A stretch of 64,000 bases of DNA, from the NCBI GenBank assembly GCA_045648045.1, contig JAZRNE010000037.1:4721-68720 (forward strand), written 5' to 3'. The first letter of the stretch is position 1. The number at the start of each line of letters is the position of its first letter. Source of the DNA: Christensenellaceae bacterium (GTDB lineage Bacteria > Bacillota > Clostridia > Christensenellales > Borkfalkiaceae). Positions 1,346 to 26,850 of the stretch are shown in pieces. The notes below the pieces were generated by a model. The model worked only from the letters and a program-made list of their open reading frames with translations. It did not search any database and was not told the origin of the DNA. Both the position numbers and the translations under genes were made by a program.

Positions 1346-3406
1346 ATGGGTAAAATAGGTTCAGACAAAATTAGGAACGTTGCGATTATAGGTCACAGCG
1401 GTGCAGGCAAAACTTCTCTTGCAGAAGCAATTCTTTTTAACGGTAAAAGTATTGATAGATTAGGCAAAACGCCTGATAAGAATACCGTTATGGATTATGA
1501 CGAACAAGAAATGCAAAGGGGGATTTCAATTTCTCTTGCGTGTGCATATACTTACTGGGACGACGTTAAGATTAATATAATCGACGTGCCCGGTTTTTAT
1601 GATTTTGAAGGCGAATTTGAACAAGCAATGCGCGCGGTAGGTTCTGCGGTTTTAGTTGCCGATGCTAACGGACAAGTTGCCGTTGGCGCCGAAAAGGCGA
1701 TTGATTACTGTTTGCGCCGTCACATTCCGCTAATGATTTTCGTTAACGGCATTGATAAAGAAAATTCAAATTACGTTGCTACGGTTGAAGCGTTCGTTGC
1801 TAAATACGGCAAAAAGATTTCTCCGACGCACTTGCCGATTATTCGCGACGGCAAGATGAAAGGTTACGTTTCGGTTATCTCGGGTAAGGCGTTTGAATTT
1901 ACGCCGGGTGGTAGAAATCCGATTGCTATTCCTGACGGAATGCAAGGCGAACTCGATATGCTTAAAGAAACGCTTACCGAGGCGGCTGCTGAAACTAGCG
2001 AAGAACTTCTTGATAAGTATCTTTCAGAAGGTTTACTTTCTAACGACGAAATCGTTGCAGGTATTAAAAACGGTTTAAGCGCAGGTGAAACCGTGCCGAT
2101 TATGGGTGGTTCAGCACTTCAAAATATGGGCGTTATCAACCTTATGTATGAAATTAGGGATTTGCTTCCTTCTCCGTTAGAACGCCGTCCCGTTCTTGCA
2201 ACTGACGAATCGGGCGAAGTTTTATCTATCGTTAGCGATGCTGAAAAGCCATTCTCGGCACAAGTGTTTAAAACTGTTGCCGACCCGTTCGTTGGTAAAC
2301 TTAATATGATAAGAATATTTACCGGCTCTATTAAGAGTGGTATGACCGTTTATAACGCAACGACGGGCGAAAAGGAAAGAATTAACACACTTTACGTTAT
2401 GAAAGGTAAAAAACAAGAAGTCGTTGATGAACTTGGCGCAGGTGATATCGGTGCGGTTAATAAACTAAACAACACCAACACGGGCGATACGCTTTGTGAT
2501 GAAGGCAAGAAGATTAAGTTCTATCCGATACCGTTCCCAGCACCCGTTCTCACTATGAAAATAGGCGCTGCGAAGTCTGGCGAAGAAGATAAAGTTTTCC
2601 AAGGCTTAAACCGTCTAGCGGAAGAAGATTTGACCTTTAAGGTTGAAAAAGACAAAGAAACGGGCGAAACCGTTATCCGTGGTCAAGGCGAAACGCAACT
2701 AGACGTGCTTTGCAAGAAATTAAAATCAAAATTCGGTTGTGAAGCCGTTTTAAGCGAACCCAAGGTTGCGTTTAAGGAAACCATTACGGCAAAGGCTGAA
2801 GGCGAAGGCAAGCATAAAAAGCAAACGGGTGGTGCAGGTCAATTCGGCGTTGTTAATATTAAGTTTGAACCGGGCGCTGCTGACGGTGAGTTTGAGTTTG
2901 TTGACGAAACGGTAGGCGGGTCTGTTCCTAAACAATTTATCCCGGCCGTTGAAAAAGGGCTTAGAGAAGCAATCCAAAAGGGCGTGCTTGCAGGCTATCC
3001 TATGGTTAACTTAAAGTGTACTTTGTTTGATGGTAAATATCACCCCGTTGATAGTAAAGAAGTTGCTTTCGTTTCCGCAGCAAAACTTGCGTATGACGAA
3101 GCCGTTCGCAAAGCAAAACCCGTTATTTTAGAACCTATTTATTCTTATAAGATTACCGTTCCCGATAACTACACGGGCGATATTTTAGGTGATATGAATA
3201 AACGCCGTGGTAGAATTCTCGGTATGGAAACGGTTGACGGATTGCAAGAAATTACCGCCGAAGCACCGCTTATCGAAATGCTTAAATACGCAACGGATTT
3301 GCGCAGTATGACGCAAGGTCGCGGTAAGTTTAGTTTTGAATTCTTGTCTTACGAAGAAGTTCCCTTCTCTGCACAAGAAAAAATTATTGCAGAGGCAAAA
3401 AATTAA
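1346..3406 (+). CDS. Elongation factor G paralogue (EF-G2-type translational GTPase)
   Basis: G1 motif IIGHSGAGKTS, DVPGFYDF and full EF-G domain-length architecture (686 aa). Good SD (aggggga) upstream. Confidence 0.85.
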   Translation: MGKIGSDKIRNVAIIGHSGAGKTSLAEAILFNGKSIDRLGKTPDKNTVMDYDEQEMQRGISISLACAYTYWDDVKINIIDVPGFYDFEGEFEQAMRAVGSAVLVADANGQVAVGAEKAIDYCLRRHIPLMIFVNGIDKENSNYVATVEAFVAKYGKKISPTHLPIIRDGKMKGYVSVISGKAFEFTPGGRNPIAIPDGMQGELDMLKETLTEAAAETSEELLDKYLSEGLLSNDEIVAGIKNGLSAGETVPIMGGSALQNMGVINLMYEIRDLLPSPLERRPVLATDESGEVLSIVSDAEKPFSAQVFKTVADPFVGKLNMIRIFTGSIKSGMTVYNATTGEKERINTLYVMKGKKQEVVDELGAGDIGAVNKLNNTNTGDTLCDEGKKIKFYPIPFPAPVLTMKIGAAKSGEEDKVFQGLNRLAEEDLTFKVEKDKETGETVIRGQGETQLDVLCKKLKSKFGCEAVLSEPKVAFKETITAKAEGEGKHKKQTGGAGQFGVVNIKFEPGAADGEFEFVDETVGGSVPKQFIPAVEKGLREAIQKGVLAGYPMVNLKCTLFDGKYHPVDSKEVAFVSAAKLAYDEAVRKAKPVILEPIYSYKITVPDNYTGDILGDMNKRRGRILGMETVDGLQEITAEAPLIEMLKYATDLRSMTQGRGKFSFEFLSYEEVPFSAQEKIIAEAKN

Positions 3407-24530: not shown

Positions 24531-24785
24531 GTGCTTTTGCGGGAAGATATTATTGATAGAATTGTTGAAGAAGCGGAATATATTATTCGCACGGGGGATA
24601 CCGTTCGGGGAACGGCAAAAGTTTTTCATTTTTCAAAGTCAACCGTGCATAAAGACGTTACTGAAAGGTTGCTTAAAATCGACAAAGAACTTTGCAAACA
24701 AGTTAAAATCGTGCTAGATAAAAACCTTGCGGAACGCCATATTCGCGGTGGTGAAGCAACTAAAAGAAAATATAAGGGCTTTTAA
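24531..24785 (+). CDS. spoIIID: Stage III sporulation protein D (mother-cell transcription factor)
   Basis: VFHFSKSTVHKDVTERL...HIRGGEATKRKYK closely matches SpoIIID. The real start is probably TTG at 24537, 8 nt after ggggg. Confidence 0.88.
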   Translation: MLLREDIIDRIVEEAEYIIRTGDTVRGTAKVFHFSKSTVHKDVTERLLKIDKELCKQVKIVLDKNLAERHIRGGEATKRKYKGF

Positions 24786-24788
24786 TGG

Positions 24789-24817
24789 TTGACAAATTTT
24801 TAATTGTGTAGTAAAAT
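24789..24817 (+). promoter_or_regulatory. Consensus sigma-A promoter directly after the spoIIID stop
   Basis: TTGACA, 17 nt, TAAAAT. Confidence 0.6.
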
Positions 24818-24823
24818 AATTTT

Positions 24824-24952
24824 GTAAATACCTAAACTAAAAGGTGCGCCTAATAGTAAAGGGCTTAATTTGGGAATTAACAAGGCACAAAGTGTCTTGA
24901 TAACTCACGTTCCGCCTTTGCTGTATATTTCGGCAAGGGCGTTTATTTTTTT
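24824..24952 (+). promoter_or_regulatory. Structured 5' leader with an intrinsic terminator upstream of the ABC binding protein gene (unclassified riboswitch-like element)
   Basis: Two internal hairpins (ttaatt-tggg-aattaa; caaggcac-aaa-gtgtcttg). The terminator is ccgcctttgc..gcaagggcg followed by tttattttttt (24913-24952). aaaggtg can pair with cgccttt, which is the terminator's left arm. Confidence 0.4.
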
Positions 24953-25048
24953 AAGCGTTTCTAAACCGCGCATTTCATCGTTACTGCTCTTTCAAAAACG
25001 GCGACACTTGTCAACGCAGGCGTTATGAAAAACAAAAGGAGACTTTTT

Positions 25049-26086
25049 ATGAAAAAACTTTTTAGCATATTTTTAGCAATTATTTTGTGTGTTTCAACTT
25101 TGTGCTTAAGCGGTTGTAATTTAGCCGATTTATTTGGCGATAATTCTAACAAGGGGGATGACGGGCCTAAAAAAATTTCTTTTTACGCGCCCGACGGTGC
25201 GCCCGCTTTAGCGATTGCAAAATTTATAAACGATAACGAAAATTTTGGAATTGACGGTGTAATTGATTACAAGGTTGTTGCGTCAGGCGATATAGGTGGC
25301 GTTATGTCGCAAGGATTGGGCGATTTTATCGTAATGCCCGTTAACGCTGCAAGTAAACTTTATAAGGCAGGTAATTCTCAATACGTTATGACGGCGGTTA
25401 TAACTCACGGTAATTTATACTTAATGAGTAGTGACGGCACGAACACGCTTGACGATTTAAAAGGCAAAGTCGTCGGCGTTATCGGTCAAGGGTTAGTTCC
25501 CGATTTGACCTTAAAAGCAATCTTAAACGACAACAATCTATTAGGCGACGTTTTGGTTGGCGATACGGTAACCGACGGTAAAATAACTTTAAGATATTTT
25601 GCGTCTGCGCAAGAAATGATACCGCTACTTAAACAAGGTAAGTTGAACGTTGGGCTTTTACCCGAACCTGCGGCAACGAACTTAACCAAAGTTGCAAGCA
25701 ATAAAGAGTGGACGAGATTTGACGTTCAAGAACTTTACGACGCCCAAGCAAAATCTTATCCGCAAGCCGTTTTGATGGTTAGAAAAAGCCTTTATCAACC
25801 GTTTAAACAACAAATAGACGGAATGAAAGATTTGTTTGACGCTAACGTTCAATGGATAAAAGAAAATACTGCGGACGCAGTAACTACCGTTAATTCAAAA
25901 CTAAAAGAAGGCTTAACGCCTAGTTTAGATGCAACCAAGATAAACGCAGCGGTTATTGATAATTGTAAAATTTACTACCAAAGCGCAACGGATGCCAAAG
26001 CGTCAGTTGAAGGTTATTTGCAAAAAATAAAGGCTATATCAGAAATTTCCGCAGGGCAAATAGGCGAAGATTTCTTTGCTGAATAA
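25049..26086 (+). CDS. ABC transporter substrate-binding lipoprotein, NitT/TauT (NMT1/THI5-like) family
   Basis: Lipobox LSGC and size and sequence style of aliphatic-sulfonate/HMP-type binding proteins. Start at the ATG 7 nt after ggag. Confidence 0.65.
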   Translation: MKKLFSIFLAIILCVSTLCLSGCNLADLFGDNSNKGDDGPKKISFYAPDGAPALAIAKFINDNENFGIDGVIDYKVVASGDIGGVMSQGLGDFIVMPVNAASKLYKAGNSQYVMTAVITHGNLYLMSSDGTNTLDDLKGKVVGVIGQGLVPDLTLKAILNDNNLLGDVLVGDTVTDGKITLRYFASAQEMIPLLKQGKLNVGLLPEPAATNLTKVASNKEWTRFDVQELYDAQAKSYPQAVLMVRKSLYQPFKQQIDGMKDLFDANVQWIKENTADAVTTVNSKLKEGLTPSLDATKINAAVIDNCKIYYQSATDAKASVEGYLQKIKAISEISAGQIGEDFFAE

Positions 26087-26091
26087 TTAAA

Positions 26092-26850
26092 ATGAAAAAC
26101 AAAAAAGAAAAATCACTCAATTTAATATTGCCTTTAATTAGCGTAATTGCAATATTGCTATTGTGGGCGGTGGCGAGTGTAAGCATTGATAACGAATATA
26201 TCTTGCCGTCAATTCAAAAAACGGCAAAAGAATTTTTTGCGCTTTTTAATAGCAAAGAGTTTTATCTTTCGTTATGGTTAACCGTTATAAGAAGTTTTAT
26301 TGCTTTTGCCCTGTCTTTTATTCTTGCGCTAATATTTGCAATTTGCGCAAACAAAATAAAATATTTTAAGGCTCTTATTTCTCCGCTAATAAGCATAATG
26401 CGTGCCCTGCCAACCATAGCCATAGTTTTGCTTTTACTTTTTTGGACTAATTCAAAGGTTGCGCCTATTGTCGTAACTGCAATCGTAGTTTTGCCAACTT
26501 CTTACACGCATATAGAAAGCGCACTATTTTCGCTTGATAAAACTATTTCGGAAGCGGGTAGGGTAGACGGTGCGGATGAAAAAAGCGTGTTTTTAACTAT
26601 TGAATTGCCACAAATTTTCCCGTCGATTTATAGCGGAATAGGTAGTGGGTTATCGCTTAATCTAAAACTTATGGTGGCGGCGGAAGTTATTGCTCAAACG
26701 GCAAAGTCAATCGGGTATTTGCTAAACACTTCAAAAGTGTACTTTGAAATTGCCGAGATGCTTGCTATCGTTTGTTTCGTAATCGCTTTAGGTGTGATAA
26801 TTGAAAGCGTATTTAATTACCTTTCAAAAAAGGTGGGCGAATGGAAATAA
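26092..26850 (+). CDS. ABC transporter permease (BPD_transp_1, NitT/TauT family)
   Basis: Six TM segments and an EAA-like loop (ISEAGRVDGADE). Confidence 0.8.
   Translation: MKNKKEKSLNLILPLISVIAILLLWAVASVSIDNEYILPSIQKTAKEFFALFNSKEFYLSLWLTVIRSFIAFALSFILALIFAICANKIKYFKALISPLISIMRALPTIAIVLLLLFWTNSKVAPIVVTAIVVLPTSYTHIESALFSLDKTISEAGRVDGADEKSVFLTIELPQIFPSIYSGIGSGLSLNLKLMVAAEVIAQTAKSIGYLLNTSKVYFEIAEMLAIVCFVIALGVIIESVFNYLSKKVGEWK

Follow-up and report, generated by a model that had tools for sequence, protein, structure and literature searches.

Upstream of an ABC importer operon in a 64,000-nucleotide stretch of DNA from a Christensenellaceae bacterium (the window in the following) lies a leader that is a real, conserved attenuator RNA missing from the RNA catalogues. 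Very probably it represents a class of attenuators defined by a motif that is otherwise associated with genes of the TM1266 family, and according to structure predictions its default state is most likely read-through, i.e. closure of a small hairpin in the leader would result in termination and switch the operon off.

The leader is framed by a promoter and an intrinsic terminator (Table 1). A preliminary description of this DNA had placed a near-consensus promoter just after spoIIID, followed by a leader of about 130 nt ending in an 11-bp terminator stem, and this layout holds: the promoter begins 4 nt past the spoIIID stop codon (24785) and matches the consensus at 11 of 12 positions, the leader comprises about 128 nt, and the stem is G+C-rich and followed by UUUAUUUUUUU. 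We infer a transcription start near 24824-24826. In agreement with the preliminary description, no second promoter-like site was found on the + strand between the terminator and the start codon of the binding-protein gene at 25049. The promoter is conserved as well: of 72 distinct homologous upstream regions, 70 keep at least 10 of 12 consensus positions, and the distance from the end of the -10 element to the hairpin is 7-16 nt in them, most often 14.

Table 1. Features of the attenuator region and its neighbouring genes (positions in the window).
Feature	Position	Strand	Remarks
spoIIID	24531-24785	+	PF12116, 114 bits; upstream neighbour, outside the switch
Sigma-70-type promoter TTGACA-17-TAAAAT	24789-24817	+	11/12 consensus positions
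Core hairpin	24831-24862	+	RNAalifold consensus and covariance model (R1); 32 nt, nested
Predicted antiterminator 5' strand	24853-24864	+	3' half of the core hairpin plus 1-2 bases; pairs with 24912-24924
Linker	24863-24880	+	Weakly conserved (U)GAAU stretch in alignments
P2 hairpin CAAGGCAC-AAA-GUGUCUUG	24881-24899	+	4/4 modelled pairs change on both sides
Intrinsic terminator	24913-24952	+	11-bp stem 24913-24941, U-run 24942-24952
Lipoprotein substrate-binding protein, NitT/TauT (SsuA/NMT1/THI5-like) type	25049-26086	+	Weak SsuA_fam match, no Pfam match
ABC permease (BPD_transp_1)	26092-26850	+	Convergent apbE next, no ATPase gene behind

The core hairpin has the layout CCU-AAA-CUA-AA-AGG-[UGCG]-CCU-AA-UAG-UAA-AGG, i.e. 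three 3-bp helices (P1a, P1b, and P1c, from the outside to the loop) are separated by A-rich internal loops. Its two 14-nt strands, when both are read 5' to 3', agree at 10 of 14 positions, so that the duplex, which can also be described as 3-[2x2]-4-[2x2]-3, is dyad-symmetric. Folded alone the hairpin is weak (-4.2 to -6.3 kcal/mol); the fold energy of the leader has a z-score of -2.9. The three-helix architecture proposed in the preliminary description has to be replaced by this nested core. Of the two hairpins named there, caaggcac-aaa-gtgtcttg (24881-24899) is P2, a real hairpin with covariation in relatives, whereas ttaatt-tggg-aattaa (24866-24881) is present in the sequence of the window but lies in non-conserved linker. 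P2 is found in the genus and the family and is missing from more distant members (L127-129, L142, and L148).

Covariation among homologous leaders, which had been suggested as a check, is clearly seen. In 95 distinct leader sequences, aligned by fitting to the covariance model, a procedure that biases the pair counts towards the structure, standard pairs fill 97.1% of the pair cells as compared to 79.4% in shuffles (none of 500 reaches the observed value), and their share drops to 40-60% when the partners are slid. Changes on both sides occur at 18 of the 23 modelled pairs in the same set, and all 10 modelled pairs of the terminator covary. Within P1b, the middle helix, pair 16:35 is UA in 78, CG in 7, and GC in 4 of the 95 sequences, and pair 17:34 is AU in 59, GC in 17, and UG in 6. 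Divergent members exchange this helix freely (CCG/CGG, CGC/GCG, CGA/UCG, CAA/UUG, UCG/CGG, UUC/GAG), and the inner helix P1c appears as AGA/UCU, GGG/CCC, or AGC/GCU. A pseudoknot between the loop and CACGU was considered and dropped, as inspection of the alignment by eye revealed no consistent covariation.

The leader is regularly found together with the importer. In a BLAST comparison with 60 relatives it was present in 27 of the 36 genomes of the same genus, with 24826-24869 being its most conserved part. A pattern search through 185,579 species genomes yielded 73 loci, all from Christensenellaceae or uncultured Clostridia of gut or rumen, and binding protein and permease follow at every locus with readable downstream DNA. 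Altogether, about 95 distinct leader sequences stand ahead of the same importer in gut Christensenellales. The downstream proteins diverge to 27-35% identity to those of the window, whereas the RNA core is near-invariant. Within the family, covariance model R1 matches 38 of 151 genomes, which belong to 12 of 23 genera, and it also matches ahead of homologous binding proteins in other families of the Clostridia, where P2 is missing. A 37-bit match in G121, a genome from a genus without TM1266 and the only one of this genus to match, was discarded as a false positive caused by a gene-end terminator. In the host genome a parser scan detected a single copy of the motif followed by a T-run.

None of the families in Rfam 15 fits this RNA, in line with its earlier description as an unclassified leader. 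At gathering thresholds cmscan reported nothing but one tRNA in the whole window. A permissive scan of 24700-25120 (421 nt, E<=10) gave 12 matches, all at chance level, and the NMT1, TPP, purine, preQ1, and HMP-PP models were not among them; the explicit check for the NMT1 (xanthine) RNA, which the preliminary description had advised, was thus negative even at E<=10. The PyrR site (RF00515) scored 23.1 bits (gathering score 54, E=0.51), mainly driven by the terminator, the PyrG leader 20 bits (gathering score 65), and the L10 leader (RF00557) 17.9 bits (gathering score 44), the latter in the wrong gene context, as rplJ would be expected. The TPP riboswitch (RF00059) gave no match in this region, and the same search detects it in two other loci, L151 and L152. 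Likewise, 20 loci of the TM1266 type discussed below have no Rfam match at gathering score, and 10 gave only sub-threshold scores for the L10 leader. On two related leaders the L10 model scored 25-31 bits. A literature search revealed no paper on the leader motif or on the function of TM1266.

How the hairpin is coupled to the terminator can be seen from minimum free energy (MFE) folding of transcripts cut ahead of the 3' arm of the terminator. In 91 of 95 leaders the 5' arm of the terminator pairs with the 3' strand of the hairpin, and in 3 with its 5' part. For the window the antiterminator fold amounts to -29.0 kcal/mol versus -22.3 kcal/mol with the hairpin enforced, and the full-length MFE fold (-38.1 kcal/mol) contains the hairpin(s) and the terminator. 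Cognate strand duplexes average -10.1 kcal/mol and non-cognate ones -9.2 kcal/mol, an effect that is small and confounded by the relatedness of the leaders, although none of 2000 permutations reaches the cognate mean. As the 3' strand of the hairpin is the antiterminator strand, stabilisation of the hairpin favours the terminator, i.e. the OFF state. In the mechanism we propose, transcription would begin near 24825 and the nascent RNA would first fold the weak, dyad-symmetric hairpin 24831-24862. As long as nothing holds the hairpin, its 3' strand AUAGUAAAGG would be captured by the emerging 5' arm of the terminator, and the antiterminator thus formed would allow transcription of the importer genes (ON). 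With the hairpin clamped by an effector, formation of the terminator (24913-24952) would put an end to transcription (OFF).

Two other readings of the region have to be weighed against this OFF switch. According to the preliminary description the leader is an ON switch in which a ligand-stabilised helix P1, formed by the 5' AAAGGUG and the CGCCUUU arm of the terminator, blocks termination. The underlying complementarity does exist in the window (24840-24846 versus 24913-24919), but the conserved competitor for the terminator arm is the second AAAGG, at 24858-24862. In relatives with a UCCCUUU arm the postulated helix keeps 5 bp, while the 3' AAAGGG(A) strand offers 6-7 bp; the AAAGGU is sequestered by a covarying nested hairpin, and the strong preference of the terminator arm for the hairpin's 3' strand (91 versus 3 of 95) points the same way. 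Folding thus indicates OFF logic acting via the 3' strand, and we consider an ON switch improbable. Even less credit can be given to the view that there is no switch at all and that 24913-24952 is merely the terminator of spoIIID, the remainder being unregulated spacer. spoIIID is the usual upstream neighbour, in several loci at a distance of 0.4-1.2 kb, and no other terminator was found for it ahead of the leader, so that the stem probably ends spoIIID transcripts, too. Nevertheless, at a minimum of 11 loci the unit of promoter, hairpin, and terminator is kept ahead of the importer although spoIIID is missing from the available upstream sequence, the unit is also found beside different genes in other families, and the hairpin is far more conserved than the binding protein with its 27-35% identity at the lowest. 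These loci decide against a mere spoIIID terminator, which the preliminary description had named as the competing explanation, and in favour of its own view that the leader is a cis-regulatory element belonging to the transporter.

The motif is not confined to the importer. Divergent copies occur across Clostridia, nearly always directly ahead of a gene of the TM1266 family (PF21699/TIGR03959), i.e. ACT-like proteins of about 80 residues that contain no DNA-binding domain and are annotated as 'putative iron-only hydrogenase regulator'. Behind this gene either the importer or hydG/hydE is located. Thus, several TM1266 loci without adjoining importer consist of motif and terminator followed by HydG-like or HydE-like radical-SAM genes, e.g. 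the motif heads a TM1266-hydG operon in L210, where two tandem copies share one terminator (~1790-1900, minus strand), and a TM1266-hydE operon in L193. In these hyd-type leaders the 3' AAAGG(C/G) strand is likewise complementary to the 5' arm or the loop of the following terminator. The TM1266-associated form of the motif can be written as CCU-RA(A)-[3-4 bp]-AA-RGN-loop-NCY-RA-[3-4 bp]-N(N)A-AGG, and 24831-24862 fits it. The window shares with this class the 3' AAAGG strand opposed to the terminator arm and the NitT/TauT-type importer in the operon, but the gene directly downstream is that of the binding protein instead of TM1266. In other families, as well as in many genera of the host family, a TM1266 gene is found between the motif and the binding-protein gene, and this arrangement suggests an ancestral operon in which the motif was followed by genes for TM1266-like protein, binding protein, permease, and ATPase. 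Ahead of homologous binding-protein loci lacking TM1266 we found no motif; two of these are instead preceded by a TPP riboswitch and a ThiT-like gene.

Of 399 Clostridia sampled, 246 possess TM1266-like genes, many of which have no recognisable motif upstream. Conversely, all 36 motif-bearing genomes of the host family possess PF21699, a phyletic count that covers related, non-independent genomes and leaves out the false positive G121 as well as G077, where the contig ends. The window's genus keeps an unlinked TM1266 gene in 11 of 11 sampled genomes. In the host genome the sole PF21699 gene lies on another contig (G000:C27:67644-67859; L155:1492-1734), flanked by a sigma-factor gene and thyA-folA (L155:1492-3134), and has its own TTGACA/TACAAT promoter without the leader motif. 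As the TM1266 gene is unlinked, the window shows a variant arrangement, common to its genus and g44.

Some lineages depart from the common form of leader and TM1266 gene. In the genera g36 and g45 (L166, L170, L174, and L183) a variant leader, CUGAAUCG-AUGAUU..-CGGAGAGAAAGCG, is paired with a divergent TM1266 subfamily (GRMGVPD, no DAP motif), which may reflect co-variation of RNA and protein or merely phylogeny. In genus g27 (L157, L161, L162, L164, L165, and L168) the 3' arm of the terminator, AAAGGAGG, is at the same time the Shine-Dalgarno sequence, and the start codon (AUG) of the TM1266 gene comes immediately after the U-run. With the terminator arm serving as ribosome binding site, transcription and translation would be controlled together in this genus.

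The identity of the effector is the main point on which readings of the OFF switch diverge. The near-obligate association of the motif with TM1266, which extends over four or more operon types, makes a protein at least as likely an effector as a small molecule, and from our analysis we give roughly even chances to a TM1266-family protein, probably ligand-loaded, that clamps the hairpin and thereby causes termination. Encoded in trans in the window's genus, it would act in the manner of PyrR, TRAP, or HutP. TM1266-like proteins are mostly basic (pI 8-9.7) and do not contain the Ni-binding His/Cys residues of NikR, their relative 2nzc in the PDB was deposited with 4 chains, and a dyad-symmetric duplex is the kind of site expected for a symmetric oligomeric protein. 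The pairing of a variant leader with a divergent TM1266 subfamily in g36 and g45 would fit a protein effector, too. On the other hand, to our knowledge no ACT/NikR_C-like protein has RNA-binding activity, and a riboswitch with TM1266 as its main regulated product would be expected just as well to lie next to the TM1266 gene. The joint loss of motif and TM1266 in G065 and G069 can be explained by a single deletion; as the two elements are adjacent in these related genomes, their co-loss does not provide independent evidence.

A metabolite riboswitch is thus the obvious rival of the protein-controlled attenuator: the hairpin itself would bind a molecule or ion, e.g. the substrate of the importer or a compound of H-cluster assembly, P1a would be stabilised and transcription terminated, TM1266 simply being the most commonly regulated gene. 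We regard this as possible, though with the odds against it. The closing helix overlaps the antiterminator, as in OFF riboswitches, the conserved nucleotides gather in the internal loops whereas the sequence of P1b is free to covary, tandem copies as in L210 are known from some riboswitches, and in the window's genus the RNA precedes an importer operon without TM1266 gene. Moreover, small rod-like hairpin aptamers exist, i.e. the xanthine/NMT1, THF-II, and preQ1-I RNAs. Yet dyad symmetry of the duplex would be unusual in an aptamer pocket, three 3-bp stems provide little tertiary scaffold, the motif is almost confined to genomes and operons that carry TM1266, and the gene context names no candidate ligand.

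The operon controlled by the leader encodes a binding protein, homologues of which are named 'NitT/TauT family' in the sources, and a permease. The AF2 model of the binding protein (pLDDT 89) has 3hn0, a structure whose ligand is unknown, as best fold match, followed by TauA, PqqT, Thi5, and ThiY, and neither fold nor sequence searches revealed its substrate. In many relatives (e.g. L064, L038, L028, and L093) a gene for an ABC ATPase of 213-226 residues overlaps the permease stop codon. An orthologue of this ATPase was not found in the host genome, which is 85% complete, the best match having 40% identity. Two loci combine a TPP riboswitch with a ThiT-like gene, a distant homologue of the binding protein, a permease, and an ATPase (L151:547-648 and L152:3218-3320), so that part of the binding-protein family is thiamine-related. 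The conserved Cys306 of the binding protein was considered as a possible ligand of a metal cluster and rejected; as TPP-linked and motif-less homologues share this residue, it discriminates nothing.

The binding-protein locus varies in other respects, too. Relative to the protein of the window the binding protein is circularly permuted in L003, L011, L014, L017, L020, L023, and about 30 further loci, residues ~176-343 coming first and ~27-158 second in one frame. In L002, L004, L005, L009, L012, L013, and L016 the spacer between terminator and start codon has grown to 300-600 nt by 1-3 copies of a repeat of about 100 nt that begins with UUAUAAAC(G/U)(G/U)CGCA and looks like a REP/MITE-type element; at most a remnant of it is present at 24953-25048 of the window.

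The TM1266 link may connect the importer to hydrogenases. In the host family 142 of 151 genomes encode the catalytic domain of [FeFe]-hydrogenase, whereas the maturases were not found in searches in which control genomes gave positive matches (HydG in none of 151 above the cut-off, HydE and HydF in none of 61 each). The host genome G000 itself contains two HydA-like genes (contigs C30 and C40), and neither HydG nor HydE was found in it. TM1266 and HydG tend to occur together: among 399 Clostridia sampled across the class, 201 have both, 45 TM1266 only, 41 HydG only, and 112 neither. The binding-protein family is enriched where TM1266 is present and HydG is not, being found in 21 of the 45 genomes with TM1266 only and in 30 of the 201 with both, although these genomes are related and thus not independent. 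In several lineages the motif-TM1266-importer operon is immediately preceded by a HydA gene. Presence of hydrogenases in genomes where no maturases were found means that the importer may serve hydrogenase activation, and suggests that it supplies something the hydrogenases need in maturase-less organisms. Much more speculative, and in our estimation rather unlikely, is the extended idea that leader and TM1266 sense and control uptake, by the importer, of an external hydrogenase-activating compound in a salvage route that replaces the maturases; one candidate for this compound would be a building block of the H-cluster.

If our reading is correct, a widespread regulatory RNA of anaerobic Firmicutes, absent from Rfam 15 and from the papers we searched, is added to the known attenuators, and TM1266, a long-unexplained 'putative regulator' of [FeFe]-hydrogenase maturation, gains a target that can be tested. 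Attenuation by an ACT-like domain that binds RNA would reveal a new kind of RNA-binding protein; should the RNA bind a ligand directly instead, it would constitute a new riboswitch class. Moreover, with the motif detached from the TM1266 gene and placed in control of an orphan importer, in a host family that has hydrogenases but in which the maturases were not found, the window would allow one to test how [FeFe]-hydrogenase is activated without HydE, HydF, and HydG.

Several known systems resemble parts of this arrangement. The xanthine riboswitch (NMT1 motif) is a small hairpin with conserved internal loops, a shape resembling that of the leader, and is located upstream of NMT1/THI5-like ABC binding-protein genes; the protein downstream of our leader has an NMT1/THI5/SsuA-like fold. 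However, the conserved nucleotides differ, the Rfam model does not match, and the partner genes are TM1266 and hydE/hydG rather than genes of purine oxidation, with no purine-related gene near the leader. In the TPP/ThiT operons the same transporter family, which includes importers of thiamine precursors, is under RNA control, but the window has no TPP element and its binding protein has a different residue signature. TM1266-hydE-hydG-hydF operons of the Thermotoga type involve the same family of small putative regulators (TIGR03959; 101.8 bits, cut-off 60.8), and their counterparts in Clostridia, operons for hydrogenase maturation, carry the same leader motif; in the window, by contrast, the motif precedes the importer, TM1266 is unlinked, and maturases were not found in the host family. 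The closest parallel to the mechanism proposed here is provided by PyrR (B. subtilis pyr, RF00515), TRAP (trp), and HutP (hut), where a ligand-loaded oligomer holds a hairpin, the antiterminator is prevented, and the terminator forms. The RNA is unrelated to the PyrR site, as reflected by the 23.1 bits versus a gathering score of 54, and the candidate protein is an ACT/NikR_C-like polypeptide of about 80 residues, which in the window is encoded in trans. Nevertheless, just as pyrR and hutP are the first genes behind their leaders, TM1266 directly follows the motif in most lineages, and PyrR-type systems have tandem sites in some operons, as has L210.
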